A stretch of DNA of 64,000 nt from a virus. Its lineage: Duplodnaviria; Heunggongvirae; Uroviricota; Caudoviricetes. The translations under genes and the position numbers were made by a program. The DNA is taken from IMG/VR virus record IMGVR_UViG_3300022822_000008; one strand, written 5' to 3'. The notes under the pieces were generated by a model. It made no database searches. It saw nothing but the letters and a program-made list of their open reading frames with translations, and was not told where the DNA came from. Below are positions 611 through 31,182 of the stretch, in pieces. Numbering within the stretch: position 1 is the first letter of the stretch; each line of letters begins with the position of its first letter.

Positions 611-688
611 TGGAAGGTGAAGCCAGATTCGAACTGGCGGTTGTAGAGATTTGCAATCCCCTGCGTTGGGCCACTCCGCCATTCACCT
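611..688 (-). tRNA. tRNA-Cys (anticodon GCA), CCA encoded
   Basis: Minus-strand cloverleaf folded by hand: acceptor AGGTGAA/TTCACCT, T-arm GCCAG-TTCGAAT-CTGGC, anticodon loop TTGCAAA. Confidence 0.65.
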
Positions 689-733
689 AATTAATTTATA
701 TTATAACACAACAGTAGTTTTGCTAACTTTTAT

Positions 734-1000
734 TTAAGCTGCGTAACTGCATGTCCATTTGTATGTACCACTGATGTGATACCAATCGCTGGGAATCTTA
801 TGATTAACTAAGAAAACAACATAGTTATTATCGTCTCTTAATCGACAGGCAATTGACATCCCTGAAGTATTGTGAAACCTTATAAAGGTCTTACCTTCAG
901 GATTTAAAGTTTGTTCGGTAGTTATAGCTACACCTCTTTCAGTTGCACCTATAACTGCAATCATCCCTATTAAACATAAAATTAATATTATTTTTTTCAT
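734..1000 (-). CDS. Small secreted protein (N-terminal signal peptide) within the tRNA cluster
   Basis: Hydrophobic N-terminus MKKIILILCLIGMIAVIGA. Confidence 0.4.
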   Translation of the reverse strand: MKKIILILCLIGMIAVIGATERGVAITTEQTLNPEGKTFIRFHNTSGMSIACRLRDDNNYVVFLVNHKIPSDWYHISGTYKWTCSYAA

Positions 1001-1043
1001 TTAATAAATCTCGTTTATAAGTTATTGAATGATTATTTAAATT

Positions 1044-1126
1044 TGGTGGGTATGATAGGAATCGAACCTATATTGCCTTGCGGATCAGATTTACAGTCTG
1101 AACACGATCCATACGTGTCTACACGC
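1044..1126 (-). tRNA. tRNA-Tyr-like (anticodon GTA, 13-nt variable arm); acceptor stem has 2 mismatches
   Basis: T-arm ATAGG-TTCGATT-CCTAT; perfect anticodon stem TCAGA/TCTGA with loop CTGTAAA; 3' CCA encoded; acceptor pairing is imperfect, so possibly a pseudogene. Confidence 0.45.
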
Positions 1127-1179
1127 CCAATTTAATACAACTATTATAACAAACTTGAAGTGAAATGTCAACCTTTATT

Positions 1180-1265
1180 TGGTACGAGTGGTGGGAGTCG
1201 AACCCACATGATTTTTCAATCAGAAGATTTTAAGTCTCCCGTGTATACCGTTCCACCACACTCGT
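1180..1265 (-). tRNA. tRNA-Leu (anticodon TAA), type II with 15-nt variable arm, CCA encoded
   Basis: Acceptor ACGAGTG/CACTCGT; T-arm GTGGG-TTCGACT-CCCAC; anticodon loop CTTAAAA; variable hairpin TGATT...AATCA. Confidence 0.75.
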
Positions 1266-1654
1266 AAATTCTGGACGACTCTAAACTCATGTTACGACTA
1301 GTATCGCATGAATCCGTTTTATACCTTTCTCACCGCGAACGCCCCAGCGGATACCTTTCGGTTAAGGATTTTTAAACTATTTCAATGATGAATTCTTCTA
1401 CTCTTCCCGAGTGTCGCCCGTAATTATTAATTACAGTTCTTGCCGTCAATATTCCTGTAGGTGCAAATGTAAAACCTATATAATAACCGTCTTTGTGTAA
1501 AACTAATCTTACAGGTCTGATTTCCAATTTTGTGGAAATGAGCAATGTCATAGTCTCTGAAAGTTTTTAGTTTTTTGAGAAATTTCATGATCAACCCTTA
1601 AATTCATTTCACGTTTCACGAGCAAGACTTAACCTCTTATCTCAATTAAAATTT

Positions 1655-1748
1655 CGGAGGGACAGAGATTCGAACTCTGACGCCACTTGCGCGGCTAACG
1701 GTTTTCAAGACCGCATCCGGTACCCAGAATCTTTCGGATTACCCCTCC
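1655..1748 (-). tRNA. tRNA-Ser (anticodon TGA), type II, no encoded CCA; oversized 24-nt D-region
   Basis: Acceptor GGAGGGG/TCCCTCC; T-arm CAGAG-TTCGAAT-CTCTG; anticodon stem GCGGT/ACCGT with loop CTTGAAA; 18-nt variable arm. Confidence 0.55.
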
Positions 1749-1899
1749 ATTAATAATGCTACAACCAGTTTAGGACTCGAACCATATCAACCGTCACTTT
1801 TCACCAATCACTACAAAGGTTATTACGATCTGGTATGCGCCAATACATCACATAGGTTGTATCATCTACTCGCGACAGTGAATCGCTTTCGATAATTCT

Positions 1900-2235
1900 T
1901 TACTTATACCATCTAACAAATAATTCTGATTTTTCTGTTTCTTTTATAACAGCGTCATCTGCAGTCATAACTACAATTCTTCTAAATGTATATGATACTT
2001 CTTTTGTTTCTTCTATCTTCTTTCTTTGCCGTTCAACATAAACTTGATACGTGCAACATTTTTTCATAGGTTCATAACCTTGCATCATTTCAACTGATTT
2101 AGTAAACTCAGCAAGAGACATTATATTTTCATCTCTTTCTTCAGGCGTAAGATGCGAAACGTAATACATAAAATATGGCATATTATATCCTATTGTTGAA
2201 TTAGGAGCCGGCTCCACGATAAAATGGAGTATCAC
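1900..2235 (-). CDS. Hypothetical protein
   Basis: 111-aa ORF between tRNA genes. Confidence 0.4.
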   Translation of the reverse strand: MILHFIVEPAPNSTIGYNMPYFMYYVSHLTPEERDENIMSLAEFTKSVEMMQGYEPMKKCCTYQVYVERQRKKIEETKEVSYTFRRIVVMTADDAVIKETEKSELFVRWYK

Positions 2236-2351
2236 CCGGTATTATTTGTTAAATTCTGTGGTTTCATGTTGGAGTCGTACCACACGTCATTATCAAGCCA
2301 TCATGAAACCACGACGGGACGTCTTTTCTTTCTGCAAAAAATAATTATAGG

Positions 2352-2423
2352 GGTGGCCTGCGATGATCGAAATCGCACCTTCAAGGTCACAACCTGGAGC
2401 TCTGCCACTTGAGCTAAGACCAC
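2352..2423 (-). tRNA. tRNA-His-like (anticodon GTG); anticodon stem has a C27-A43 mismatch; no CCA
   Basis: Perfect T-arm GCGAT-TTCGATC-ATCGC; D-arm GCTC-AAGTGGCA-GAGC; acceptor GTGGTCT/AGGCCAC; anticodon loop TTGTGAC. Confidence 0.5.
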
Positions 2424-2436
2424 ACCTATAATTACT

Positions 2437-2664
2437 TTAAATATGTTTATCTGAAAGCTTGCCAAATATATTCCATATAAGCCTATACAAATCTTCAGTT
2501 TGTTTTGGAGAAAAATTATGACCATGCATATCATGATACTCATTTGTTACTTCTTCTACAAACTTTTCTTGTTCTATTATTCTGTTATGTACATTAGTAG
2601 TAACATTATGATTCTTGAGTTTTTTGTATTCTTGGTATTCTTCTTCGTTTAATAAATATTGCAT
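2437..2664 (-). CDS. Hypothetical protein
   Basis: 75-aa ORF with a promoter-like -35/-10 upstream at 2696-2725. Confidence 0.4.
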   Translation of the reverse strand: MQYLLNEEEYQEYKKLKNHNVTTNVHNRIIEQEKFVEEVTNEYHDMHGHNFSPKQTEDLYRLIWNIFGKLSDKHI

Positions 2665-2695
2665 AATTTAATTCCTTTATCAATTCAATATAGCT

Positions 2696-2725
2696 ATTAT
2701 ATCAAACTTGGTACCAAATGTCAAT
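2696..2725 (-). promoter_or_regulatory. Sigma70-type early promoter (-35 ATTGAC, -10 TTGATATAAT)
   Basis: Minus-strand TTGATATAAT with 17-bp spacing to the -35 box. Confidence 0.5.
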
Positions 2726-2732
2726 AGTTATT

Positions 2733-2960
2733 TTATCTAAATTTTTGTTTATTACCAATTTTAGCTAAACCCCAAGCTAAAGATAAACAAACGATTACAA
2801 TTGCGATTGTAATCCAAAATGGAGAAAGTACCCACAACCAAGACCACGCAATAAACCCAGTCAGTTTCAATACAATGAAGACAATCGTCAATAGACCTAA
2901 GAAGCCAATACCACCATCGTTATTGTTGTTATTCACATTATTTCTGTTACTCATTTTCAT
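2733..2960 (-). CDS. Small membrane protein; paralog of 3572..3820
   Basis: Track ORF 2733..3080 trimmed to the internal start MKMSNRNN, preceded by GAGAGG, because the upstream part overlaps a tRNA; shares LTIVFIVLKL.G.I.WSW.WVLSP.W with 3572..3820. Confidence 0.5.
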   Translation of the reverse strand: MKMSNRNNVNNNNNDGGIGFLGLLTIVFIVLKLTGFIAWSWLWVLSPFWITIAIVIVCLSLAWGLAKIGNKQKFR

Positions 2961-2981
2961 TCCTCTCTCATTATTAAAAAT

Positions 2982-3056
2982 TGGCTGGGATATCAAGGTA
3001 CGATCCTGAAATGACGGATTTAAAGTCCGTAGTGTTGCCAATTGCACCATATCCCA
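2982..3056 (-). tRNA. tRNA-Gln paralog with anticodon TTA (reads UAA); candidate ochre suppressor; non-canonical T-loop ATCGTAC; CCA encoded
   Basis: Acceptor TGGGATA/TATCCCA is identical to the 5' acceptor of tRNA-Gln(TTG) at 3838..3912, and the discriminator G is shared; perfect anticodon stem ACGGA/TCCGT with loop CTTTAAA; D-stem 3 bp; T-stem TCAGG/CTTGA. Confidence 0.6.
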
Positions 3057-3069
3057 TTTATTAATAAGT

Positions 3070-3172
3070 GATGTTGCCATGGAATCGAACCACGAGGCTG
3101 CCGTCGCATTTAGCTCTTCCAGAACACGCAGGAATCGAACCTACTTGCCTATCCTTATACAACATCATAATT
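3070..3172 (-). other. Degenerate tRNA-like region: two T-arm/acceptor-like modules without a foldable D-arm and anticodon arm (tRNA remnants)
   Basis: Two motifs (CATGG-AATCGAA-CCACG at 3078-3094; GCAGG-AATCGAA-CCTAC at 3128-3144) each with an adjacent acceptor-like 7-mer; no 5-bp stem with 7-nt loop found between them. Confidence 0.3.
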
Positions 3173-3250
3173 TGGTGGGTAGTCACAGAATCGAACTGTG
3201 TTCTCAGGATCTTCAATCCCGCGCTGAATTACCAAACTAGCTCACTACCC
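3173..3250 (-). tRNA. tRNA-Phe (anticodon GAA), CCA encoded
   Basis: Acceptor GGGTAGT/ACTACCC perfect; T-arm CACAG-TTCGATT-CTGTG; anticodon loop TTGAAGA. Confidence 0.7.
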
Positions 3251-3260
3251 TTTATAACTT

Positions 3261-3336
3261 TGGTGGCCCACCCTGGGATCGAACCAGAAACCTTTCGATT
3301 ATGAGTCGAGTGCTCTACCAGTTGAGCTAACGGGCC
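3261..3336 (-). tRNA. tRNA-Met or Ile2 (anticodon CAT), CCA encoded
   Basis: Acceptor GGCCCGT/GTGGGCC; D-arm GCTC-AACTGGTA-GAGC; anticodon loop CTCATAA; the body is nearly identical to the tRNA at 7629..7704 but the acceptor stem differs. Confidence 0.75.
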
Positions 3337-3341
3337 GTATT

Positions 3342-3415
3342 TGGTACTAGGTGGAAGAATTGAACTTCCGTCTGACCATTATCAGTGGTCCGTTCTACCA
3401 TTGAACTAACCCAGT
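3342..3415 (-). tRNA. tRNA-Ile (anticodon GAT), CCA encoded
   Basis: Perfect T-stem GGAAG/CTTCC; perfect anticodon stem GACCA/TGGTC with loop CTGATAA; perfect D-stem GTTC/GAAC. Confidence 0.8.
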
Positions 3416-3435
3416 ATATTTAAAATAGTTAAAGG

Positions 3436-3508
3436 GGTGAACGACGGGGCTCGAACCCGCACAATCTCGAATCACAATCGAGGACATTACCAATTCTGCC
3501 ACGTCCAC
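3436..3508 (-). tRNA. tRNA-His (anticodon GTG), no CCA
   Basis: Perfect anticodon stem CTCGA/TCGAG with loop TTGTGAT; T-arm GCGGG-TTCGAGC-CCCGT; acceptor GTGGACG/CGTTCAC. Confidence 0.7.
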
Positions 3509-3571
3509 GCCTTTAACTACTTTTCAATTATATAACCATCCTTGGTCATGTTTTTAGTACATAGTATCAAA

Positions 3572-3820
3572 CTATGATTGTTTTGTTAACTTATATTTAA
3601 TTTTTTTGAAGCCTTCGATACCAAGTATCGCCACGAAAAAGATTAAATAACCAATAGCTCCGCAAGAAATGACAACAGTGATAGGTAACCATAAAGGCGA
3701 AAGTACCCACCACCAAGACCACGTAATTGTACCGACCAACTTTAAAACAATAAAGACAATAGTCAATACTCCCATTGTACCTATACCATCTGAACTTACT
3801 TCTTTTTTCCTTGAACTCAT
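3572..3820 (-). CDS. Small membrane protein; paralog of 2733..2960
   Basis: RBS GAGGAAG upstream of the ATG; two transmembrane segments; conserved motif shared with the paralog. Confidence 0.5.
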   Translation of the reverse strand: MSSRKKEVSSDGIGTMGVLTIVFIVLKLVGTITWSWWWVLSPLWLPITVVISCGAIGYLIFFVAILGIEGFKKIKYKLTKQS

Positions 3821-3837
3821 TTTACTTCCTCATCATA

Positions 3838-3912
3838 TTAATAATCTTGGCAGGGACAGAAGGATTCGAACCTTCGATACCGGATTCAAAGTCCAGCGCC
3901 TTAACCGCTTGG
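3838..3912 (-). tRNA. tRNA-Gln (anticodon TTG), CCA encoded
   Basis: Acceptor TGGGATA/TGTCCCT; perfect T-arm GAAGG-TTCGAAT-CCTTC; anticodon loop CTTTGAA. Confidence 0.75.
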
Positions 3913-3930
3913 CCATATCCCAATTGTAAT

Positions 3931-4005
3931 TTTATTAATTTGGTGCAAGGTGATGATAACGATCCATCCTCTAGGGATTTTCAATACCTTACTAATACAT
4001 CTCAG
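3931..4005 (-). tRNA. tRNA-Phe-like (anticodon GAA), second copy with non-canonical T-loop ATCGTTA; CCA encoded
   Basis: Acceptor GCAAGTT/ACCTTGC (6 of 7 pairs); D-stem ACTG/TAGT; anticodon stem AGGTA/TCCCT (4 of 5) with loop TTGAAAA. Confidence 0.5.
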
Positions 4006-4022
4006 TTAAACTTGCAAATATT

Positions 4023-4099
4023 TGGTATCAAGAACTGGAATCGAACCAGTATCAATTATTCGTATCTCTCGAAATGCTCTACCATTGAGCTATCCTGAT
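4023..4099 (-). tRNA. tRNA of undetermined specificity (anticodon loop AGAGATA lacks U33); CCA encoded
   Basis: Perfect T-arm ACTGG-TTCGATT-CCAGT; D-arm GCTC-AATGGTA-GAGC; acceptor ATCAGGA/TCTTGAT; the anticodon arm is non-canonical. Confidence 0.5.
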
Positions 4100-4216
4100 G
4101 TTTGAGATCGTACACGGCTCTCGACCGCAGACTAGATGAACTATTGAAGTGCATGAATCAACAAAGACGTCTCTATGTTGCTTTCTCAACTCAATCTAGT
4201 TATACGAAATAAGGTT

Positions 4217-4266
4217 ATCACAACTTGACATTTCCGCTCTAATTGCTTGATGTGAGAGGTTGTGAT
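4217..4266. other. Long imperfect hairpin (ATCACAAC...GTTGTGAT) immediately 3' of tRNA-Asp; possible processing site or small stable RNA
   Basis: 8-bp terminal inverted repeat with a partly self-complementary interior. Confidence 0.25.
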
Positions 4267-4271
4267 ATATT

Positions 4272-4347
4272 TGGCGGTGTGTGCGGGATTTGAACCCGCG
4301 ACCTCTTGCGTGACAGGCAAGCATTCTTACCCCTGAACTAACACCCC
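4272..4347 (-). tRNA. tRNA-Asp (anticodon GTC), CCA encoded
   Basis: Perfect T-arm GCGGG-TTCAAAT-CCCGC; perfect anticodon stem CTTGC/GCAAG with loop CTGTCAC. Confidence 0.8.
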
Positions 4348-4354
4348 AAAAATT

Positions 4355-4573
4355 TTAACTACACTTAATTCTGTTACCTATATAATCTCTAAAGATTTTA
4401 GGTTTTGTTTTTTGATCTGATTCAATATGAACCACATAAAAATGTTTTACATTATCAATACAAACGTATTTTACATTATGCGTTGGGTTTAGAATTGCAT
4501 ATATGCAAAGACATATAACCGTAATAACAGCTCCAATAATTCGTTTATATTTCATATTGTTTTCTTTTTTCAA
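4355..4573 (-). CDS. Small membrane or secreted protein
   Basis: 72 aa with a hydrophobic segment; promoter-like element at 4575-4604. Confidence 0.4.
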   Translation of the reverse strand: MKKENNMKYKRIIGAVITVICLCIYAILNPTHNVKYVCIDNVKHFYVVHIESDQKTKPKIFRDYIGNRIKCS

Positions 4574-4574
4574 T

Positions 4575-4604
4575 TCAGTGTGTACATTGTATCAAATATC
4601 TTGC
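4575..4604 (-). promoter_or_regulatory. Sigma70-type promoter (-35 GTTGAC, -10 TTGATACAAT)
   Basis: Consensus boxes upstream of ORF 4355..4573. Confidence 0.45.
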
Positions 4605-4627
4605 CAATGTCAACAACTAATATAATT

Positions 4628-4695
4628 TGGTGCGTCACAAGGGAGTCGAACCCTCAATGATTGGGTTTAGAATCCTACATTAACCATTATGACGC
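4628..4695 (-). other. Truncated tRNA-like element: acceptor plus T-arm and CCA, no anticodon arm
   Basis: T-arm GAGGG-TTCGACT-CCCTT and acceptor GCGTCAT/GTGACGC pair well, but only ~40 nt remain and no 5-bp stem with 7-nt loop exists; the 5' part overlaps the 3' end of ORF 4680..4949. Confidence 0.3.
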
Positions 4696-4949
4696 AATGT
4701 AACTCCAATACTTAAAACCCATCTGGAGCCTTTTTCAATCTTTTTAACTTTGTGGAAGTTAGCATCTGCTCTAAATAGACAGAATCGCCACCAACGAAAT
4801 ACAACGTTGCTACAAACAAATTCACCACCCTTATCAGCTTTTTTCAATGTAATATTAAACCGATAATGACGACCATATTTACCAGGATCTTTATGTTTTG
4901 GTATAAAGGAGCCTGTTTTATAATGGAATATATAAATGTCTGTCTTCAA
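4680..4949 (-). CDS. Hypothetical protein
   Basis: 89-aa ORF. Confidence 0.4.
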   Translation of the reverse strand: MKTDIYIFHYKTGSFIPKHKDPGKYGRHYRFNITLKKADKGGEFVCSNVVFRWWRFCLFRADANFHKVKKIEKGSRWVLSIGVTLRHNG

Positions 4950-5494
4950 ACGTTTGCTATAGAATAAAGTAAATATTCGATACCCCGAATTAAATTTATC
5001 ATTACCCCAACGGAATAATCTTAAACTTGGCGTTTGCGTTTTCTTCTACATTTTAGCACCTTCTTGTTTATCGAAAAATTCATCAAAACTGCAATGACCC
5101 ACATGAGCAGCAATTTTGTTTAGTTCTACTATCATGATATCTAAATAAGACATCACTTTGTTAAAATCTTCATTACTCATTTTACATTTCCTTATTAATA
5201 TCAATCAAAGAGCGAGTAGCAAGTGAAGCAATAAACAGTATTCGCTTGCCCCGAAGGATACAATACGAACAAAACAAATCACAAAAAACAAATCACACTT
5301 GTCGTTACATTAGTTCAGTTAGCAATGGACAAGTCTTAAGACACCCAATATAGACTGTAGCAGTAACAAATTGACCGTAAAGGTCTCCATTAATGTTCTG
5401 AAATTAATCAGAGGTACTTGTTCTCTTTTCTCTTGATTGATAGTCATCTGTATAGGTCCCCCTAGGGTAGACTGTTTCCGATGACGCGAACTCT

Positions 5495-6067
5495 TTAAAT
5501 TAGATTTGATTTTGAAAGTGATGCCTCTACACTAGGTGAAAGATCAATTTCTGTTTTTATATTCAACTCTAACAATTTATCTTTTAAATTTTGTCTAGTT
5601 CTTTTGTACGTAGCAATCTCTTTTTCCGCGTTACTTAAATACGACTTACTAAGTACTGAAGTTGAAAAATTGCTCGACATTCTATCGTAAGATGAACTGG
5701 ATTCATTGCTTTTAATTTTCCAAATTTTACCTGCGATCAATTCAGCACTCATTTGCTCACCAGCCGTAATTGCATCTTTGGCGTCTTTCAAATGCGCTTC
5801 AATTAAAGCGATTTCGGTAAGCAAGTCACTGACGCCTGCTTTATGATTACTCCTTGATACATCTTTGCGTATTCTGTACAAAATATTAGTCAGATCAGAT
5901 TTTAAAACTTCTGCATCTTTGAAATTACTTCTTGCTGTGTCAATTTGCACATTGGCATCTTCATGCTCATTCAATCGAACTACTGCAAGAGAAGAAAGAT
6001 TAATGTTTTTAATTACACTTTGTATTTCTTGTTGTAAGGCATTTGCCTTTCTTAAACTAATTTTCAT
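5495..6067 (-). CDS. Hypothetical coiled-coil protein
   Basis: 190-aa ORF in the tRNA region. Confidence 0.5.
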   Translation of the reverse strand: MKISLRKANALQQEIQSVIKNINLSSLAVVRLNEHEDANVQIDTARSNFKDAEVLKSDLTNILYRIRKDVSRSNHKAGVSDLLTEIALIEAHLKDAKDAITAGEQMSAELIAGKIWKIKSNESSSSYDRMSSNFSTSVLSKSYLSNAEKEIATYKRTRQNLKDKLLELNIKTEIDLSPSVEASLSKSNLI

Positions 6068-6092
6068 TTTACATCCTCATTATAAATTATAT

Positions 6093-6170
6093 TGGTGTTC
6101 ACGGTTGGAGTCGAACCAACGACCTCAGGATTAGAAATCCCGTGTTCTTTCCAGCTGAACTACGCGAACG
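6093..6170 (-). tRNA. tRNA-Arg (anticodon TCT), CCA encoded
   Basis: Perfect T-arm GTTGG-TTCGACT-CCAAC; anticodon loop TTTCTAA; perfect D-stem GTTC/GAAC. Confidence 0.7.
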
Positions 6171-6178
6171 TTATTAGG

Positions 6179-6254
6179 CATCCCCACGTGGATTTGAACC
6201 ACGGTTTCTGCTCCGAACAGAGCATTGTCCTAGGCCTGACTAGACGATAGGGAT
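6179..6254 (-). tRNA. tRNA of uncertain specificity (possibly Asn GTT); anticodon loop is 6 or 8 nt, not 7
   Basis: Perfect T-arm CGTGG-TTCAAAT-CCACG; acceptor ATCCCTA/TGGGGAT; D-stem GTCT/GGAC; anticodon region TGCTC-TGTTCG-GAGCA does not give a 7-nt loop. Confidence 0.5.
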
Positions 6255-6263
6255 ATTAAAATG

Positions 6264-6333
6264 AGCAGGTAAAGGGAATCGAACCCTTTCTACACAGCTT
6301 GGAAGGCTGGCGGATAACCTTTATCTTACCTGC
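6264..6333 (-). tRNA. tRNA-Gly (anticodon TCC), no CCA
   Basis: Perfect acceptor GCAGGTA/TACCTGC; perfect T-arm AAGGG-TTCGATT-CCCTT; anticodon loop CTTCCAA. Confidence 0.65.
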
Positions 6334-6523
6334 ATTAAACTACTTAAAACGCTGGTTCATCCTTCTTGCGAAGATGTTGAACTATATTGGTATTACACTT
6401 AATTATATTATCTGCATTCGCGCCTATGTGTGCAGTACGTAATGATTCACATAGATTCTCTAATTCAACTAAAAACTCATAATGATCTTCTTTGTAATCA
6501 AACATAATAATTCCCAAATAATT

Positions 6524-6598
6524 TGGTACACCTAGAGAGAATCGAACTCTCATTGTCAGGTTGAAAACCTGGTGTCCTGACCGTTAGACGATAGGTGT
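6524..6598 (-). tRNA. tRNA-Glu (anticodon TTC), CCA encoded
   Basis: Perfect acceptor ACACCTA/TAGGTGT; perfect T-arm GAGAG-TTCGATT-CTCTC; anticodon loop TTTTCAA. Confidence 0.8.
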
Positions 6599-6604
6599 AA
6601 AAAT

Positions 6605-6682
6605 TGGTAGCGAGTAATGGAATCGAACCATTCTCTGTTCGGCTTATGAGACCGATGAGTTCTACCAGAACTCTAACTCGCG
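6605..6682 (-). tRNA. tRNA-Met/Ile2 (anticodon CAT), CCA encoded; body differs from the other CAT tRNAs
   Basis: T-arm AATGG-TTCGATT-CCATT; anticodon stem TCGGT/GCCGA with loop CTCATAA; D-stem GAGT/ACTC; C1-U72 mismatch. Confidence 0.7.
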
Positions 6683-6807
6683 TTTGTCATTTATTGGAAC
6701 GGTTATCACTGAACGATCCGCAATCAGTAGCTTTATCCGTTATAGTATTTTTCAACTAAACATATAAGGCAGGTATTTATTTCTTCGTGTTTCGATTCAA
6801 TATAAAC

Positions 6808-6837
6808 ATTATATCAAAAAACTAAAGCAAAGTCAAC
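6808..6837 (-). promoter_or_regulatory. Early promoter cassette with conserved leader, positioned to drive the tRNA sub-cluster 6682..6093
   Basis: GTTGAC-17-TTGATATAAT followed by TGTTTATATTGAATCGAAACACGAAGAA; no ORF follows, only tRNA genes. Confidence 0.6.
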
Positions 6838-7187
6838 CTTTATTTTCAATTATTCTGATATTATTCTTAATATTTTCCGGCAAATTTAAATGTGCAATTT
6901 TTTTGATAAAGTTATTTCGTGCATTTTCTTCATTCTTCGCCTTTAAAGTCAACCTTACAAATTCACCTTCTTGTATCCCATATTCACCAGTTACAATAAA
7001 AGTTTTCATTCAACCTCTTTAGGAAATAATGCCGCGACTGCAGTGAAAAGGTTAAGTTCTCTCAATGACAGTTTTGTAATTTCATCAACTGCCGCATCAG
7101 GATCTTCTTTAAACATTTCTCGCATTTCCCTAACATATTGCGCGCTTATTTCCGGGTGTAACATATCGTACTCCATAATAAAAAAAT

Positions 7188-7260
7188 TGGCACCAGAGTT
7201 AGGAATTGAACCCAACAGACGAGGGGTTGGAATCCTGTCGATACCCTGTATCTCTCTGGC
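7188..7260 (-). tRNA. Compact tRNA, anticodon ambiguous (CCA/Trp or TCC/Gly)
   Basis: Acceptor GCCAGAG/CTCTGGT; T-arm TTGGG-TTCAATT-CCTAA; the anticodon region GGTTGGAAT gives two alternative weak stems. Confidence 0.45.
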
Positions 7261-7270
7261 ATTGTAAATG

Positions 7271-7336
7271 TATTCACTCTAGGGATCGAACCTCGGCGTT
7301 CGTAGCACCGCGCTCTTCCATCTGAGCTAAGCAAAT
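7271..7336 (-). pseudogene. tRNA-Arg(ACG)-like remnant: D-arm, anticodon arm and T-loop present; variable loop and T-stem collapsed; acceptor does not pair
   Basis: D-arm GCTC-AGATGGAA-GAGC; anticodon stem CGGTG/CGCCG with loop CTACGAA; GGTTCGATCC T-loop lies directly against the anticodon stem (~6 nt missing). Confidence 0.35.
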
Positions 7337-7341
7337 ATCAG

Positions 7342-7433
7342 TGGCGGATAGACTAGGATTCGAACCTAGGGATCCCTGTAACAGGACCGACGAGTTAGCA
7401 ACCCGTTGCCTTAAGCCACTCAGCCATCTATCC
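7342..7433 (-). tRNA. tRNA-Ser (anticodon GCT), type II, CCA encoded
   Basis: Perfect acceptor GGATAGA/TCTATCC; perfect T-arm CTAGG-TTCGAAT-CCTAG; anticodon stem ACGGG/CTCGT with loop TTGCTAA; 20-nt variable arm. Confidence 0.75.
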
Positions 7434-7440
7434 AAATAAA

Positions 7441-7518
7441 TGGTGTGAACGGTGGGAGTCGAACCCACAAGCATCTGTTTCTAAAACAGATAGGTAAACC
7501 AATTCCCGTCACATTCAC
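7441..7518 (-). tRNA. tRNA with anticodon TAG (Leu-type anticodon) but a short type I variable loop
   Basis: Perfect T-arm GTGGG-TTCGACT-CCCAC; perfect anticodon stem TCTGT/ACAGA with loop TTTAGAA; acceptor GTGAATG/CGTTCAC. Confidence 0.55.
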
Positions 7519-7533
7519 AATAAAAGCATAATG

Positions 7534-7608
7534 TCAGAAAGGAAAGATTCGAACTTTCGACCCCACGGATCCAAACCGTGTACTCTGACCAGACTGAGCT
7601 ACTCTCTG
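7534..7608 (-). tRNA. tRNA-Pro (anticodon TGG), no CCA
   Basis: Perfect T-arm GAAAG-TTCGAAT-CTTTC; perfect anticodon stem CACGG/CCGTG with loop TTTGGAT. Confidence 0.8.
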
Positions 7609-7628
7609 ACATTATGCTCTTTAAATTT

Positions 7629-7704
7629 TGGTGCACCGCCCTGGATTCGAACCAGAAACCTTTCGATTATGAGTCGAGTGCTCTACCAGTTGAGCTAGCA
7701 GTGC
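7629..7704 (-). tRNA. tRNA-Met/Ile2 (anticodon CAT), CCA encoded; near-duplicate body of 3261..3336
   Basis: The internal ~60 nt are identical to the tRNA at 3261..3336 apart from a T-loop base; acceptor GCACTGC/GCGGTGC. Confidence 0.75.
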
Positions 7705-7727
7705 GTAATTTTAACTTTAAACAAATT

Positions 7728-7798
7728 TGGTGGAGAACCAGAGAATCGAACTCTGTTCTAGTCGGTGCAAGCGACCATCTGCATCCATGACGTTCCCC
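7728..7798 (-). tRNA. tRNA-Ala (anticodon TGC) with the G3:U70 identity pair, CCA encoded
   Basis: Acceptor GGGGAAC/GTTCTCC gives G3-U70; perfect T-arm CAGAG-TTCGATT-CTCTG; anticodon loop CTTGCAC. Confidence 0.8.
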
Positions 7799-7804
7799 AA
7801 TTTT

Positions 7805-8197
7805 TTACACCTTTAACTTATCATCTCTAGTAAGGTAGTTTTTCTTTCGCATAGTTGTTTTTGCTATAACATCTAATTCATCATTTCGTTTATCGTACTT
7901 AACCATAAAAGGTATGTTGATGTTTGAGTTAATGTCGAATAAAACTGCTTCGACACCTGGATTCATACCTCCGATTTTAGGTCCATGTTTTGCAAATACC
8001 TTCTTGAACATACTCATTAGCTCAACTATTGTAATTGCATTACCGTTTCTAGCATCGTTGACTCTTTCTCTAAAATGAGTACCAGATAAATCTATATCTA
8101 CACCAACAGCAGCGAATAACTTATCAGCAAATTTCTCTACTATACCAATATCTGTTCTTGAAAGTTCTTCTGAGAACATTTCTTTAAATCTTTTCAT
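7805..8197 (-). CDS. Hypothetical protein
   Basis: 130-aa ORF. Confidence 0.5.
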   Translation of the reverse strand: MKRFKEMFSEELSRTDIGIVEKFADKLFAAVGVDIDLSGTHFRERVNDARNGNAITIVELMSMFKKVFAKHGPKIGGMNPGVEAVLFDINSNINIPFMVKYDKRNDELDVIAKTTMRKKNYLTRDDKLKV

Positions 8198-8385
8198 TGT
8201 GACTACCTTATTATTTTTATCTATTTATCTATTTATGTACAAGGTTATCAACTAAATAATTATATGTCCAGTATCCTCACCTAAAAGAGGAATGCATCGG
8301 CCGTTTGCATCGCTAATCTTGACCCTATGCGTCCGAGGATTGGCATTTAGGAACGATCAATTTTGCATACTGGCATATAATTATT

Positions 8386-8461
8386 TGGTAGTGTGAAATG
8401 GATTTGAACCATTATCTAATCCCTTATGAGGAGATTTCTTTACCAATTAAGATACCACACT
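8386..8461 (-). tRNA. tRNA with anticodon CAT (fourth CAT tRNA), CCA encoded
   Basis: Perfect T-arm AATGG-TTCAAAT-CCATT; anticodon stem ATCTC/GGGAT with loop CTCATAA; acceptor AGTGTGG/TCACACT. Confidence 0.7.
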
Positions 8462-8472
8462 ATTAAAAAATT

Positions 8473-8548
8473 TGGTACTCGATGATGGGATCGAACCATC
8501 AACATCTGCCATGTAAAGGCAGTGCTCTGCCTATTGAGCTAATCGAGT
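8473..8548 (-). tRNA. tRNA-Val (anticodon TAC), CCA encoded
   Basis: Perfect acceptor ACTCGAT/ATCGAGT; perfect T-arm GATGG-TTCGATC-CCATC; perfect anticodon stem with loop TTTACAT. Confidence 0.8.
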
Positions 8549-8610
8549 TTTGGTGCCGAAACCCGGAACTGACCCGAGAACTAATGGTTACAAATCACTT
8601 GTTTTTCCAG

Positions 8611-9252
8611 TTAAACTATTTCGGCTATTTCGTTAATTGATTGCCAACTAAGTTGGCTCTTATTTAAAATTATTATTCTAACGCCATTCTGTTCTTCTAC
8701 TAGTTTTATCTTTTCACAATCTTTGAACCCAAGGCTTGGGTTGATGTTGTTAATTAGAAAGTCGTTTTTAGGGTCTAAATATAAATCATAGTCTATTAAA
8801 TATATGTCTGGTGTATAGGTTCTTGCTTTGCCTTTTGGGTCAATATAATTGAACCTCGAGCAAGTATCCCATTTAATGTCATTTTCATCTAAGCTCTTTG
8901 CAACTTCTAATTCGTAACTACTACCTAAAGTTTTACCTTTATATTTTATCCATCTAGACTGAGTTACGCCACCAAGGCCACGTTTTTTCGCGGCTATTGA
9001 TAATTTATTCCTAGCTTCTTGAGACCAATTACGATTTCTATTACGTTCGCTAATCTTATTTCTCGCGTCATCACTTAAAATATAAGGTATACCAGTTTCC
9101 GAAGATTTGATCCATTGATTGCTATTCTTCCTCTTATCATAATCAATTTTAGGGTCTGCAATTCTATCTGGATTTTCTGCGCATCTTGGTTGATGTGCGC
9201 TCAATACCCTTTTCTTTTCTATTTCTTTGTTACAATATTTGCAATTAAACAT
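8611..9252 (-). CDS. Putative free-standing homing endonuclease (N-terminal CxxC zinc finger, NUMOD3-like repeats, C-terminal nuclease-like domain)
   Basis: CKYCNKEI...HQPRC; repeated KIS/KLS.RNRNRNWSQEARNKLS motifs; located directly beside the tRNA cluster. Confidence 0.45.
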   Translation of the reverse strand: MFNCKYCNKEIEKKRVLSAHQPRCAENPDRIADPKIDYDKRKNSNQWIKSSETGIPYILSDDARNKISERNRNRNWSQEARNKLSIAAKKRGLGGVTQSRWIKYKGKTLGSSYELEVAKSLDENDIKWDTCSRFNYIDPKGKARTYTPDIYLIDYDLYLDPKNDFLINNINPSLGFKDCEKIKLVEEQNGVRIIILNKSQLSWQSINEIAEIV

Positions 9253-15031: not shown

Positions 15032-15061
15032 TATGTTTCCTCTTTTATTTTAATACGCAAA

Positions 15062-15085
15062 AAGGCCACCCGAAGGCAGCCGTTT
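15062..15085 (-). terminator. Rho-independent terminator (UUCG-tetraloop hairpin plus U-tract) downstream of the SPFH gene
   Basis: Minus strand reads GGCUGCC-UUCG-GGUGGCC-UUUUUGCG. Confidence 0.55.
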
Positions 15086-15098
15086 CATTATTTAATCA

Positions 15099-15983
15099 TT
15101 ACTGATTTTTTGTTCCGTAAATGCGATTTTGTGCACCGACGGTTGACATTGCTTCATAAGGCATAAACACAGCGGCCTTATTTTTTGCCATTTCACTTTG
15201 AACTTCTAAGGCGCGTAATGATAACAAGTCTTCGGTAATACCTTCTCCGATTATCTTGTTGGCATCACGAACCGCTTTAGCACGAGTGATTTCAATTTCG
15301 TAATCTTTCAGAGCAAGAACCAATTCGTTCTCTTTCTTGGTCATATCGATTGCGGCCTGTGCCTCTTCTTTTTCAATTGCGAGACGTCTTTCCTCGTTAG
15401 CTTCAATCGAGGCATTAATGACTTCAGGATAATTAATATTACCAATCATCACTTGAGACAATTCAATAGGCGTAGTTTTAAACGATAACAAAACAGCATC
15501 AGCGATTTGTTGGCTTATTCGTTTGTAATTAGTATGAACATCATCGACAGTATATTCGCTGATTATTTCACGAGTTTTATTACGGATGATCATTCGACCA
15601 TACACAGCATAAACTTCATCAAAAGCGACTCGACGATCATCACCAGCCACGATATCATTAAAGATCGTATTCACAACAGACGGATCACTTGAAATTCGAC
15701 CTGAGAACTTAACATCGACGAACAAAGTCAATTTGTCTTTCAGTTTAACTTCAATGTTATTTTCGCTATAAACTTTTGAAGATGTGTCTAAAATGACCAT
15801 ATCATCACGACCGAACAGGGTGTATTTACCAGGTTCTAATACTTCAGGTTGATAACCGGAGGTGGTTAGGATTTTACCTTTACTGGCAGGTTCGACAGTG
15901 TAAAAACCACAGCCGCCTAATGTGATTGCTGTTAATAGTAATAGTGTTTTACTTAGGGTTTTCATTGTTGATCTCATTTTCAA
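15099..15983 (-). CDS. SPFH/band-7 (prohibitin/HflC-like) lipoprotein
   Basis: Lipobox LTAITLGGC; band-7-type coiled-coil C-terminus AIEKEEAQAAIDMTKKENEL. Confidence 0.7.
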   Translation of the reverse strand: MKMRSTMKTLSKTLLLLTAITLGGCGFYTVEPASKGKILTTSGYQPEVLEPGKYTLFGRDDMVILDTSSKVYSENNIEVKLKDKLTLFVDVKFSGRISSDPSVVNTIFNDIVAGDDRRVAFDEVYAVYGRMIIRNKTREIISEYTVDDVHTNYKRISQQIADAVLLSFKTTPIELSQVMIGNINYPEVINASIEANEERRLAIEKEEAQAAIDMTKKENELVLALKDYEIEITRAKAVRDANKIIGEGITEDLLSLRALEVQSEMAKNKAAVFMPYEAMSTVGAQNRIYGTKNQ

Positions 15984-16386
15984 TTTCCTGTTGATTTTGT
16001 TTAATTACTTCAGCTTGTTTGCGGAAGTCTTGGTTTAAAGGGTCTTTTGCACCCTCGGATTTTTCTACGATTGATTTTTGTGTATTTGTGAAACTTGTTT
16101 TACCTGTCATGGAAGTACTTTCCAATCTGACGGGCATTCCTAACAACACAATAATAATAAGACTTACAGCACCGAGCATCTTATATTTGTGGTTTGAAAT
16201 CTTTGTTGCTGTTTCTTCTTCAAGAAACGGTTTTAATAATTTCGTATAAACTAAGCAGAAAACACTTAGCGCTAAAAATGCGGCTATATAGCTATAAATC
16301 ATTGTATTTCTCCACTTTTGTTTTATCATTCCTGAGTTTTTGAATAAACCCAAGGTTCTTTTTACATCTGATACATATTCCATCAC
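15949..16386 (-). CDS. NfeD-like membrane protein partnered with the SPFH gene (35-nt overlap)
   Basis: Two transmembrane helices followed by a soluble C-terminus; operon position typical of NfeD-SPFH pairs. Confidence 0.45.
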   Translation of the reverse strand: MMEYVSDVKRTLGLFKNSGMIKQKWRNTMIYSYIAAFLALSVFCLVYTKLLKPFLEEETATKISNHKYKMLGAVSLIIIVLLGMPVRLESTSMTGKTSFTNTQKSIVEKSEGAKDPLNQDFRKQAEVIKQNQQEIENEINNENPK

Positions 16387-16545
16387 ATGATCTGGTTTCG
16401 GTGTATATCAAATGTTCACAAAAATGCTGGTTTACAGATTCTCTTAATGCACCCATTAATTTTATAAACAACATGATAGTTTCACCCATTTCGTTACTCC
16501 GTATTTGTTTTGATAGACACATTATTACAAATTATATTAGTAATG

Positions 16546-17451
16546 TCAACCATTATATTCTTCCATGATGATATCTTTTATTTTGCTCATATCGTTATAT
16601 TCTGGCAAATCACTCGCCTCAAGTTTTTCCGTAACACTATCATACATATCAGTGATTATAGAAACAGCATCTTCTTGAGGTACTTGACCTAATTTGATTT
16701 TCATAATTTCGTCAGCACGAACCAAAGGAAATACTAAATCTCTTGTGTCGATTATTTCCTCAAGTTGGATAATAGCCCTGACTGCATGACTCAATGCCTT
16801 CCAATCGCCACCTGAATGTGAACTTACTACAGTTCGGTCACCGTAACGACTTATTTTTTGCTCCAAACAAGTTTTAAGATGCTCCATACGACAGGTAATT
16901 TGATTGCGGCTGCCACAAATATCAATGTTAGCAATAATATTATCTTTATGTGGAGTGAACGTAATATATTTAAAATCAGATCTCATTATTTGTTCAGGTA
17001 TCGTGGTTTCAGCAACTCTAACACTATCGTGATAAACATGCAACCAATTATTTAGTTCCTGCATTTCCTGATAACGTCTAACTTTATGGCCATATTTCGT
17101 AGACATCGTTTTTATATAACCAAGAATTCCTCTCATATTTTTACAATAAATGCCAGATCTATTTTTCTGAATTTCATCCCAAGCAGGCGTCGAGTTTAGT
17201 GTAAATTCCTTCGGTGTGTGTATCATATCAACAGAAACAGTATCACCCTTGTCTAGCATGCTGAAATATTTTCCAATTGCATACAGCGAAGTGTCAATAT
17301 CATCAGTTTGTTTTTCTATGACAGGTTGAAAATTTCCAAATACAACATCTTCTAAAGTAGGAACAAAAAGGCCTTTGTAATCTGTATCGCTCTGTGGCCT
17401 AGATAATCCATACAGATGCGAACCAAATACTCCATTAAATAAAATTTTCAT
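16546..17451 (-). CDS. Pol-beta-superfamily nucleotidyltransferase (GS..DxD motif)
   Basis: GVFGSHLYGLSRPQSDTDYKG plus a downstream acidic residue in VSVDMIH. Confidence 0.6.
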   Translation of the reverse strand: MKILFNGVFGSHLYGLSRPQSDTDYKGLFVPTLEDVVFGNFQPVIEKQTDDIDTSLYAIGKYFSMLDKGDTVSVDMIHTPKEFTLNSTPAWDEIQKNRSGIYCKNMRGILGYIKTMSTKYGHKVRRYQEMQELNNWLHVYHDSVRVAETTIPEQIMRSDFKYITFTPHKDNIIANIDICGSRNQITCRMEHLKTCLEQKISRYGDRTVVSSHSGGDWKALSHAVRAIIQLEEIIDTRDLVFPLVRADEIMKIKLGQVPQEDAVSIITDMYDSVTEKLEASDLPEYNDMSKIKDIIMEEYNG

Positions 17452-18232: not shown

Positions 18233-18261
18233 TATTATAACAAGTAATGAGAGAATGTCAA
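18233..18261 (-). promoter_or_regulatory. Sigma70-type promoter (-35 GTTGAC, -10 GTTATAAT)
   Basis: Consensus boxes upstream of ORF 17732..18049. Confidence 0.45.
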
Positions 18262-29166: not shown

Positions 29167-31182
29167 TTAAAAATTAACCTTCAATACCCGATTGAAAGAA
29201 CCTTTGACGCGAACAACAACACTGTTGCGTTGAGTTGAACTGAAACCTAATCCACTTAGTTGTTCCTTTGTGTGTTCAGCTTTAAATTTACTACTTAATA
29301 CTTCAAACACTTTACGATGTTTTACCAAACTTCCGTTCAGGAATTCGTTGTAAAAACCACGCGCGGGTTCAGGATTCAGACAACCATCAAGAATAAAGAA
29401 AACATGCTTGTTGCCAGTTTCACAGTTATCCCAATGATTAGGACTATTCATGATCATAGACACCTTCGTCCATTCGTTTGTATTTACACCCCAAACTTCT
29501 TTTGATGAAGTAGTACTTTCCATCGATTTGGTTATAACCACACCTTTAGATTTGCTGTAATTAAAATGCAACACAGTAACTTTTTTGCCATCGGGTAAAG
29601 CATCAGGATGTTTAATTAATTGAGTAGCGCCTTTTATATCAAGTTCCAATTCAAAACCCACATTAGATGTAGATCGTTTGGAATAATTATGAACAATAAC
29701 TTTATAATTACCTTCAATCATTGTCGATAAGCGATTCCAAGTAATATTTTCTACTGGGTCTGTTTTATTTGAAGGACCTCCAGCATTCATATCAACATCA
29801 AGGAGACCACCGCTGGCACCTTTCTTTGAAGAAAAGTATATAGCATTACCACTAGGTTCGATTACACTTAAGTCCAAATCGTCGCCATTGTACCACGCAA
29901 GACTAAATCGTAATTCACCAGTGACGGATCCACCAGCAGTCTTAACACGTTCCTTTATACCGTCTGTAACTTCTCCATTGTAACTCCAAGAGAAATTATT
30001 ATCCCATTTCAGCATGTTATTTGAATCTGCATCAACAGGCGCGACAACACTCATAAGATTATTAACTTGATTGTTGGCAACTTGCATCTCTATGCTATCA
30101 ACCTTCGGAAGCACTTTTGAGATGAAATCATCAATTGCAATTTCTTCAATTTTATCTGTTTTAGGTATTGAAGATTTAGTCGGTGATAGACCAAGGACGC
30201 CCATTTGTTCTTTAGCAGCTCTGTCTGCAAACAGCACATTATTGATCGTAATGTCATGAACATTAGCAAATCTGCGTTGAAGCGAATTTTCCAGACCAAG
30301 TTCAGTCACGGTCGCTTCTGCACTTGTTATCATGGACTGTGTAATAAGTGAAGTTGTGCGTTTGTAATTCGTTGGCGCAACTTTCGACTCAAATGATTTC
30401 ACTGCTTTTTCAAGTTCAACACCTTCACTTATATCAGCAATAAGAGTTCCAATTACATCATTGCGGAAACGAGCAGCACCTTTTAATTTTGCGGCAAGTG
30501 ACCATATAAAATTGGATTTATTTTGAGTTACAAGAACCGTATAATCAATTTTATATTGTTTGATTGTATTAACCAACTGACGTTTTTCAGTACCGCGATA
30601 TAAGCTGTTTTGTTCAATCAAGTCACTCACGATGTGGATCGCCTCAAGATTAAATTCACGAAGGCTACGTTCCAATACCTGCGAATCAGCAAGTTTACCG
30701 CCTGCGAAGTCACCGTATGATTTACCATGTGGCAATACATATTGTTTAGGAAGTTCAATAAAGAAATGCTCATGTTCAACGGTCTGACCTGAATCAGTCA
30801 GTTCGATATTCATTTTATTGCCGATTTTCTTTTCGTCAGACATAAATTGATTTCTGATATCAAGCGATTTTACATAAGCACTCATTGCATTAGCAACTTC
30901 TTGATAATAACCTTCAACTTCAATATCCCAAATACTTGATATGGATAAGTCTGCATTGATAGAAACTACTCCACCCATTCTACGAATAAATGTTTTGCAA
31001 CAGTTACAGTCATGAACAGTACGTTCTCGATGAATTGGATTTGTGCCTTCAGGAAAAGATGGCAGATATACATTATAATAGATTTCGTCTTTGTCGAAGT
31101 CAACTACAAATAAGGTTTCACCATTCGCTGTCATTTTCTTGAATTGTTTTTCAACTGCTTGTTGAAATATACTGAATTTCAT
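29167..31182 (-). CDS. Large hypothetical protein (671 aa), function unknown
   Basis: Long uninterrupted ORF with an HDCNCC motif near the N-terminus and a beta-rich C-terminal half. Confidence 0.6.
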   Translation of the reverse strand: MKFSIFQQAVEKQFKKMTANGETLFVVDFDKDEIYYNVYLPSFPEGTNPIHRERTVHDCNCCKTFIRRMGGVVSINADLSISSIWDIEVEGYYQEVANAMSAYVKSLDIRNQFMSDEKKIGNKMNIELTDSGQTVEHEHFFIELPKQYVLPHGKSYGDFAGGKLADSQVLERSLREFNLEAIHIVSDLIEQNSLYRGTEKRQLVNTIKQYKIDYTVLVTQNKSNFIWSLAAKLKGAARFRNDVIGTLIADISEGVELEKAVKSFESKVAPTNYKRTTSLITQSMITSAEATVTELGLENSLQRRFANVHDITINNVLFADRAAKEQMGVLGLSPTKSSIPKTDKIEEIAIDDFISKVLPKVDSIEMQVANNQVNNLMSVVAPVDADSNNMLKWDNNFSWSYNGEVTDGIKERVKTAGGSVTGELRFSLAWYNGDDLDLSVIEPSGNAIYFSSKKGASGGLLDVDMNAGGPSNKTDPVENITWNRLSTMIEGNYKVIVHNYSKRSTSNVGFELELDIKGATQLIKHPDALPDGKKVTVLHFNYSKSKGVVITKSMESTTSSKEVWGVNTNEWTKVSMIMNSPNHWDNCETGNKHVFFILDGCLNPEPARGFYNEFLNGSLVKHRKVFEVLSSKFKAEHTKEQLSGLGFSSTQRNSVVVRVKGSFNRVLKVNF

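Follow-up and report, generated by a model that had tools for sequence, protein, structure and literature searches.

The window analysed here (a whole stretch of 64,000 nucleotides (nt) of uncultured-phage DNA, IMG/VR record IMGVR_UViG_3300022822_000008) carries a gene for a lipoprotein of the SPFH (band-7) superfamily and, directly upstream of it and overlapping with it, a gene for a small protein with two transmembrane (TM) helices, in the following referred to as the partner. All genes around this locus are located on the minus strand. A preliminary description, made from the sequence alone, had interpreted the pair as an SPFH protein with an NfeD-like membrane partner. Our analysis confirmed the SPFH protein, while the partner is neither an NfeD protein nor an unrelated membrane protein, but a conserved and obligately linked member of a different family. 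In a search for near-identical DNA among 50,697 phage records, no match of the window to any cultured phage was obtained, and its proteins are about 53% identical to their counterparts in Ackermannviridae.

The open reading frame (ORF) of the SPFH protein had been delimited as 15099..15983 and described as encoding a lipobox (LGGC) and a prohibitin/HflC-like coiled-coil C-terminus, and in all of these points the description holds. The window protein matches the Pfam family Band_7 (PF01145) over residues 30-210 with 62 bits (E=9.5e-17), the cut-off being 23.6 bits, and it also passes Band_7_1 (26.8 versus 24 bits) and matches PHROG_200 'lipoprotein' (2e-45). In addition, the sequence profile of the family picks up chains of prohibitin and of archaeal stomatin from the PDB. 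An AlphaFold2 (AF2) prediction of the monomer, with a mean predicted local distance difference test score (pLDDT) of 75, places the SPFH domain at about residues 64-178 (strands 64-74, 80-91 and 167-178, helices within 95-164), followed by a 60-residue helix (181-240), a second helix (245-261) and a C-terminal segment. Foldseek searches with this model retrieved prohibitin, stomatin, HflK/C and erlin at E values of 1e-11 to 1e-8 over 245-300 columns, and QmcA at 1.2e-6. The conserved C-terminal AVFMPYEAM of the phage protein aligns with the VVYLP segment of prohibitin and would be compatible with the closure of a cage. Judging from sequence profiles and a predicted model, the assignment to the SPFH/band-7 superfamily is solid.

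The signal peptide of the SPFH protein, MKTLSKTLLLLTAITLGGC, consists of a basic n-region, a hydrophobic h-region and the lipobox LGGC, the Cys of which does not vary in an alignment of 14 sequences and is conserved to 90% or more in one of 44 sequences. Once lipidated, this residue, Cys19, would form the N-terminus of the mature protein. Compared with cellular SPFH proteins, the predicted novelty is an anchor made of a lipid-modified Cys instead of a TM helix, and a protein anchored in this way would be forced to the periplasmic side. The residue that follows the lipobox Cys is Gly in the window protein and Gly or Ser, but never Asp, in the tabulated homologues.

Homologues of the SPFH protein were found by tblastn in 160 phage records, with alignments that start at the lipobox Cys. 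They include Pseudomonas jumbo and PAK_P3-like phages, Klebsiella phage Miami, Erwinia phage Joad, KVP40-like vibriophages, phiCbK-like Caulobacter phages as well as phages of Aeromonas, Alteromonas, Acidovorax and Xanthomonas. These lipoproteins of cultured phages, which are large lytic phages of Gram-negative hosts, belong to the same family, are 23-48% identical over 90% or more of the length and carry the same lipobox. The window protein differs from them in that it belongs to an uncultured, marine-type clade and has no near match among cultured phages. Metagenomic relatives with 55-89% identity are numerous. A scan of genome contigs, limited to a search pattern and hence not proof of absence from bacteria, returned four loci, all of them metagenome-assembled and one duplicating a viral contig. 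SPFH proteins are common in other viruses too.

According to the AF2 prediction and the sequence, the partner consists of a first TM helix (residues 2-23), a K-rich loop, a second TM helix (39-55) and, next to the membrane, a conserved motif (PVRLESTSMTGKTSF); a disordered linker then leads to a polar helix at the C-terminus (90-112). The predicted helices comprise residues 2-23, 29-37, 39-55 and 90-112, the low-confidence linker residues 61-88, and no strands are predicted. The window partner could not be assigned to any family of Pfam, PHROG, NCBIfam or PADLOC.

One explanation of the locus, in line with the preliminary description, would be a true NfeD-SPFH operon; the partner would then be a short NfeD protein that binds the SPFH protein through its OB (oligonucleotide/oligosaccharide-binding) fold. 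Such operons are common in bacteria (PMC13086221, PMC2636767) and share with the phage pair the order of the genes, their overlap and the arrangement of N-terminal TM helices before a soluble C-terminal part. The likeness to NfeD is one of layout only, i.e. N-terminal TM helices and a gene that overlaps the SPFH gene, and is not proof of homology. The Pfam family NfeD (PF01957) gave no match to 16 upstream-type partners, including that of the window, at E values up to 10, nor to nine further partner-type proteins at E values up to 1; the profile of the partner family retrieved no NfeD structure from the PDB at E values up to 10. There is no space for an OB barrel because the tail comprises only ~35 non-helical residues. 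The NfeD candidacy was therefore rejected on the negative results of Pfam for all 25 proteins, of the PDB profile search and of AF2. The compartment would differ as well, since the tail of the partner is predicted to be periplasmic, whereas the QmcA-YbbJ (QmcA/YbbK-YbbJ) cage of E. coli protrudes into the cytoplasm (PMC13086221). In addition, a survey of prokaryotic SPFH proteins published in 2009 found no NfeD homologue for SPFH3, SPFH4 and SPFH6-12, which include the periplasm-facing HflK/C and the prohibitin-like subfamilies (PMC2636767). The NfeD reading is largely refuted, and we regard it as very improbable.

When the partner alone was used as query (tblastn, phmmer), only one relative, 62% identical, was obtained. 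A sequence search alone would hence suggest an orphan, and it was by synteny that the family could be recognised. An exhaustive profile search among 1.84 billion representatives yielded 37 partner clusters, all of 97-121 amino acids (aa) and matched end to end, and no proteins of the size of NfeD. The signature of the family comprises an N-terminal YLAWS-like motif, a juxtamembrane N[VI]GxRQxxLxRSxF[DN], an EKV motif and the C-terminal helix, and 27 of 38 family members match the unannotated PHROG_32239. The window partner itself has no match to PHROG_32239 at E values up to 1e-3, and its own high score against the family profile is circular, as it was part of the query. It fits the family in length, architecture and position, has retained the residues of the almost invariant columns Tyr, Gly, Arg/Lys and Phe, and may be a divergent member of the upstream-type family.

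The orientation of the partner in the membrane can be predicted from its charges. None of 23 N-termini of partner-type proteins contains a K or R, and in these 23 proteins 86 K+R are found in the short loops between the helices versus 48 in the N-termini and the first 15 residues of the tails together. This distribution predicts an N-out/C-out topology, which would place the ~60-residue tail and the juxtamembrane motif in the periplasm, i.e. in the compartment of the lipoprotein.

The linkage of both genes was followed through 21 viral and four genome loci that were fetched and scanned, and later additions brought the sample to 34 distinct loci. In each of the 34, the SPFH lipoprotein gene has a neighbour whose product contains two or three TM helices, and in all but Kuttervirus this product has a hydrophilic tail. 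In the clade of the window (25 loci), the gene directly 5' of the SPFH gene encodes a two-TM-plus-tail protein of about 96-121 aa, and in Psa21, PAK_P3 and Miami a protein of 114-121 aa with the same plan is found at this position. By comparison, none of 62 other window ORFs of 80-150 aa shows the two-TM-plus-tail architecture, and with a TM protein flanking the SPFH gene in every locus, the linkage is more than expected by chance. Across relatives, the identities of the SPFH protein and the partner to the window proteins are 88-89/62, 65/40, 56/31 and 47/10%, so that the identity of the partner declines in step with that of the SPFH protein, about three times faster. Against the closest relative (locus L043), the ratio of nonsynonymous to synonymous substitution rates (dN/dS) is 0.06 for the SPFH protein and 0.26 for the partner.

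Several loci deviate from this plan. In L028, an Endozoicomonas metagenome-assembled contig, the frame of the partner (3652..3987) is intact with two TM helices and an APVRKE motif and contains no ATG, GTG or TTG before residue 62, which could be due to a non-canonical start or an assembly error. The phiCbK locus has a version with three TM helices upstream of the SPFH gene. In the Salmonella Kuttervirus PhiSH19 (JN126049; L029, 2432..2650, minus strand), an unannotated ORF of 72 aa with two TM helices overlaps the start of the SPFH gene with its stop; just 5' of this ORF lies a gene annotated as 'superinfection exclusion protein' (Pfam GP17, PF17420). Finally, in seven distant lineages (KVP40, D490, Vibrio P1, Alteromonas PT11-V22, Aeromonas 4L372XY, Acidovorax ACP17 and Xanthomonas XacN1) a two-TM-plus-tail gene of 105-139 aa is located directly downstream of the SPFH gene instead. 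The label PF04186 (FxsA), which GenBank gives for KVP40.0338 (L030, 2374..2733), was not reproduced with current Pfam at E values up to 1. A search for a third conserved gene, in which 116 flanking ORFs from 24 lineages were compared with Pfam, revealed no family in more than two lineages.

The transcription unit runs in the order promoter, 65-aa ORF, partner, SPFH gene and terminator (Table 1). The start of the partner at ATG 16302 was called identically by public gene callers on three independent metagenomic contigs, and GTG 16386 was rejected because the ORF would run through the preceding gene. For the SPFH gene, ATG 15965 or ATG 15977 (292 aa, the choice of public gene callers) is the likely start rather than TTG 15983. 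The preliminary description was correct about an overlapping upstream two-TM protein with a tail, but not about the length of the overlap, which it had given as 35 nt. In eight relatives of the marine clade the overlap measures 14-17 nt, suggesting translational coupling. The hairpin of the terminator (15081..15064, GGCUGCC-UUCG-GGUGGCC-U5) begins 18 nt past the SPFH stop and corresponds to the UUCG-tetraloop terminator noted earlier; the closest relative has kept it, with a G-C pair in the stem where the window has G.U.

Table 1. Features of the SPFH locus and of its surroundings in the window.
Feature	Position	Strand	Remarks
Sigma-70-type promoter-like site	16521..16549	minus	TTGACA-17-(TG)AATAAT, 11/12 matches, extended -10
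Variable first gene, 65-aa Cys/His-rich protein	16292..16489	minus	GGAG 8 nt 5' of ATG 16489
Partner gene, 117 aa	15949..16302	minus	ATG 16302, GGAG 7 nt upstream
Partner/SPFH gene overlap	15949..15965	minus	17 nt (29 nt from ATG 15977)
SPFH/band-7 lipoprotein gene	15099..15965	minus	ATG 15965, MKTLSK..., 288 aa
Lipobox L-G-G-C	15909..15920	minus	codons 16-19
Intrinsic terminator	15059..15081	minus	7-bp stem (5 G-C pairs), UUCG loop, U5 tract
Further promoter sites, examples	1171..1143, 18261..18234, 47268..47240	minus	near-consensus sigma-70
RlaP-type nucleotidyltransferase gene	16546..17451
tRNA cluster	611..8625	minus	23 tRNAs
Predicted suppressor tRNA	2982..3056		anticodon UUA (reads UAA)
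Irregular tRNA	6177..6254		anticodon undetermined
671-aa protein gene	29167..31182	minus	PHROG_1735 (unknown function)
NAD-salvage genes	32513..34261, 34590..35471
RNA ligase genes	39361..40536, 46186..47205

The promoter-like site lies between the RlaP-type gene and the 65-aa ORF. The length of 65 aa is also that given by public gene callers; an extension to 76 aa would begin at ATG 16522, a codon inside the promoter. The 65-aa protein shows a C-x-H ... C-x3-C-x2-C pattern, may bind metal and matches PHROG_14388 'membrane protein' (E=1e-9). In the closest relative its place is taken by an unrelated 82-aa coiled-coil ORF (L043, 1912..2160), and this first gene is outside the conserved module. 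Small Cys-rich ORFs are also found 5' of the pair in the loci L004, L006 and L007. Over the whole window, sigma-70 sites that agree with the consensus at no fewer than 11 of 12 positions, almost all of them with an extended -10 TG, number 33 on the minus strand versus one on the plus strand, in agreement with the early-region placement proposed in the preliminary description. The promoter array, the 23 tRNAs and many small ORFs mark this as an early or auxiliary region that is read by the host RNA polymerase. The tRNA cluster also contains a predicted suppressor tRNA and an irregular tRNA.

Expression data are available for the pair of PAK_P3 (gp40/gp41; L002, 2572..3798). In RNA-seq data of this phage, the SPFH gene gp41 is abundant at 3.5 min as well as at 13 min, with a log2 fold change of -0.5, which is not significant, while the partner gene gp40 has 20-40 times fewer reads than gp41 at both times (PMC4933390, S5 table). 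The difference in reads suggests an internal promoter or differential mRNA stability. Expression of the PAK_P3 pair is hence early and sustained and probably does not follow a 1:1 ratio.

Among the known systems, the HflK/HflC complex of E. coli shares with the phage SPFH protein the SPFH domain, the coiled-coil wall helix, the C-terminal closing segment and the periplasm-facing orientation, which is predicted for the phage protein; the alignment obtained with Foldseek spans the entire protein (7vhq, 7wi3, 9paw; E about 1e-10 to 1e-9). Like the phage protein, HflK/HflC lack an NfeD partner (PMC2636767). They differ in that each has its own N-terminal TM helix and in that they form a hetero-oligomer of two SPFH paralogues, whereas the phage system consists of one lipid-anchored SPFH protein and a separate two-TM protein; the identity is only 17-21%. 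The best matches were obtained with prohibitins (9urz, E=6e-5 in the profile search; 9o9z and 8rrh, E about 2e-11 in Foldseek), and the alignment with PHB1/PHB2 and bacterial SPFH4 includes the SPFH domain as well as the coiled coil and the VF-P motif at the C-terminus. Prohibitins, however, have an N-terminal TM anchor, form hetero-oligomers and are devoid of a lipobox or a small TM partner gene. The QmcA-YbbJ and other SPFH-NfeD operons share the small multi-TM gene that lies directly upstream of the SPFH gene and overlaps it. The phage SPFH model also matches the fold of QmcA (8z5g, E=1e-6), and the logic of a cage with a membrane partner is plausible for the phage pair. In contrast to these operons, the phage partner has neither an OB fold nor a profile match to NfeD, is predicted to be periplasmic and is located downstream in distant lineages.

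On balance, we lean with modest confidence towards an early-expressed, periplasm-facing two-component SPFH assembly, in which the lipoprotein would provide the wall and the partner a two-helix integral-membrane subunit. A host-type early promoter would drive the joint synthesis of the hairpin-shaped partner and the SPFH lipoprotein. The latter has all the parts of a cage former, from the SPFH domain through the long wall helix and the second helix to a conserved closing segment at the C-terminus; with a lipidated Cys in place of the N-terminal TM anchor, the assembly would be situated on the periplasm-facing surface of the membrane, like HflK/C. The partner would be the integral-membrane subunit and would take over the function of NfeD, or of the TM helix that is missing here, being a homologue of neither. 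Its own conserved juxtamembrane motif may touch the N-terminal segment of the lipoprotein, which is highly conserved and close to the membrane, and we infer that this physical interaction would hold the assembly at the inner membrane or nucleate it there. The dome formed in this way might then fence off a patch of the membrane early in infection.

There are however a number of points that speak against such an assembly. The AF2 model of the partner is weak (pLDDT 61, with residues 61-88 below 50), and the N-terminal 30 residues of the mature lipoprotein are conserved yet have a pLDDT below 50. A comparison of the upstream- with the downstream-type partners by hhalign gave a probability of 30%, so that homology between them is not demonstrated and the shared architecture may be convergent. 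In the literature on phage SPFH genes, no phenotype is known for any of them, the entries being annotations only. Two further points, the abundance of the mRNAs and the sorting of the lipoprotein, lead to alternative explanations.

Per nucleotide, the mRNA of the PAK_P3 SPFH gene is about 10-fold above that of the partner, which is at odds with a simple 1:1 complex and would rather be expected if there were few clients per cage. The two-TM protein could be the active component, as an Imm-like blocker of DNA entry, a pore or a holin-like protein, with an SPFH cage that confines, stabilises or times it. In its small size, TM helices and charged tail the partner resembles holins and Imm, which counts for this explanation. 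The faster evolution of the partner (dN/dS 0.26 versus 0.06; 62% versus 88-89% identity) is typical of proteins with variable targets, and SPFH cages that enclose clients, e.g. FtsH or unfolded membrane proteins, are documented (PMC13086221, PMC11222466). The holin version, on the other hand, does not agree with an early sigma-70 promoter and the lack of lysis genes among the flanking ORFs. The predicted N-out/C-out topology is unlike that which is generally known for class II holins, and the partner has no sequence similarity to any known superinfection exclusion (Sie) or holin family. We regard a caged client as rather unlikely.

The second point concerns the residue after the lipobox Cys. 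In E. coli, lipoproteins with Gly or Ser, not Asp, at position +2 are sorted to the outer membrane, a rule that may differ in the host of this phage. By the E. coli rule the phage lipoprotein would therefore be moved away from its inner-membrane partner, which could be avoided if the partner retains the lipoprotein or if the host follows a different rule. Taken at face value, the +2 residue would mean that the Lol system exports the lipoprotein to the inner leaflet of the outer membrane, where it might by itself mask or disable a receptor or channel, as T5 Llp and Cor do, or stiffen the membrane; the two-TM protein would then be a transient factor for assembly or retention or a spanin-like bridge between inner and outer membrane. 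An HflK/C-like protein of a Pasteurella multocida prophage island is released in outer-membrane vesicles and signals through Toll-like receptors 1/2 (TLR1/2; PMC9872710), and small amounts of an SPFH lipoprotein have been found in preparations of Kuttervirus virions (PMC10892097), both of which would fit such a location. But the rules of lipoprotein sorting vary by host, an SPFH dome of 20 nm beneath the outer membrane would be expected to hit the peptidoglycan, and the most conserved motif of the partner is juxtamembrane at the inner membrane. Overall, an outer-membrane destination seems distinctly unlikely to us.

The spanin-like version of this idea draws on the Rz/Rz1 spanins, in which the gene of an inner-membrane protein overlaps that of a lipoprotein as in the phage pair. 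The o-spanins are small and proline-rich, and the i-spanins combine a single TM helix with a long coiled coil; both are expressed late and are found in lysis cassettes. The SPFH protein greatly exceeds o-spanins in size, and the PAK_P3 annotation lists an Rz-like spanin separately. T4 Imm and Sp as well as T5 Llp are likewise small envelope proteins of lytic phages, some of them expressed early. Neither spanins nor these exclusion proteins share any sequence or fold similarity with the phage SPFH pair.

Another explanation takes its departure from the neighbouring genes and supposes that the SPFH protein works together with adjacent RNA-repair genes, as in the bacterial RtcB/Band-7/b7a-tRNA loci. 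An RlaP-type nucleotidyltransferase lies directly 5' of the unit in the window and in L043, RtcB is encoded two genes downstream in phiCbK (L031, 2598..), an RNA ligase three genes downstream in PAK_P3, and RtcA with a Clp1-type kinase about 1 kb away in L027 (5792..7682). Published RNA-seq data show that infection by PAK_P3 leads to a ~400-fold induction of a host operon that comprises tRNA-Arg, SPFH/Band 7, RtcB, a nucleotidyltransferase and RtcA, and an association of Band-7 with RtcB in bacteria has been reported (10.1101/312249). Such a neighbour is nevertheless present in only 4 of 24 lineages, with no family in more than two, which is not significant in this small sample; the promoter separates the RlaP-type gene from the unit, a periplasmic lipoprotein would be unable to act on cytoplasmic RNA, and large phages carry RNA-repair genes anyway. 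A functional tie to RNA repair is thus a lead and not a finding, and we consider it most improbable.

Two RNA ligase genes are located elsewhere in the window, and the 671-aa protein is ~53% identical across Ackermannviridae, where its homologues are variously labelled 'DNA-directed RNA polymerase', 'DUF2135' or hypothetical. The window also contains nicotinamide adenine dinucleotide (NAD) salvage genes, which are found near the SPFH pair of two other phages as well (L023, 431..2104; L003, 4454..6256). The set comprises nicotinamide phosphoribosyltransferase, phosphoribosyl pyrophosphate (PRPP) synthetase, NadR and PnuC.

As for the purpose of a periplasm-facing two-component assembly, we can offer guesses, each of them doubtful: the exclusion of superinfecting phage DNA or imported toxins, the protection of the envelope against membrane-targeting abortive-infection effectors, or the mimicry or displacement of HflK/C on FtsH, a protease that is enclosed by HflK/C cages (PMC13086221). 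A PADLOC scan of the SPFH protein, the partner and their neighbours at E values up to 0.1 yielded no match to a defence or anti-defence family. The more far-reaching claim that large lytic phages of Gram-negative hosts have in common an SPFH machine, produced from the first minutes of infection, which they use to wall off the inner membrane against competing phage DNA or toxins or to take over FtsH, and that the partners represent the first non-NfeD family of SPFH partners, is tentative and, in our estimate, improbable as it stands.

The SPFH half of the cassette is already known in kind, as phage SPFH lipoproteins have been annotated and PHROG_200 exists. In the literature, we found no functional study of phage SPFH lipoproteins and no mention of a linked two-TM partner, but only annotations and the protein of the Pasteurella prophage island. 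What appears to be new is an SPFH operon with a non-NfeD partner, predicted to be on the periplasmic side, and a two-gene cassette of this kind that is spread among unrelated large phages. The SPFH cages of HflK/C, prohibitin, stomatin and flotillin have recently become understood structurally, whereas the partners and purposes of the bacterial members are less so. Beside NfeD, the phage proteins would represent a second kind of SPFH partner, located on the periplasmic side, and with gp40/gp41 of PAK_P3 and KVP40.0338/.0339 a testable pair is at hand in cultured, tractable phages. Even without a role in exclusion or protection, the annotation of public genomes would have to be corrected, as the partner is unannotated in them or, as in PhiSH19, missed entirely. 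If exclusion or envelope protection proved to be true, the pair would constitute a widespread early function of therapeutic Pseudomonas and Klebsiella phages, and if the membrane is indeed walled off, a new class of exclusion or counter-defence that acts at the level of the envelope.

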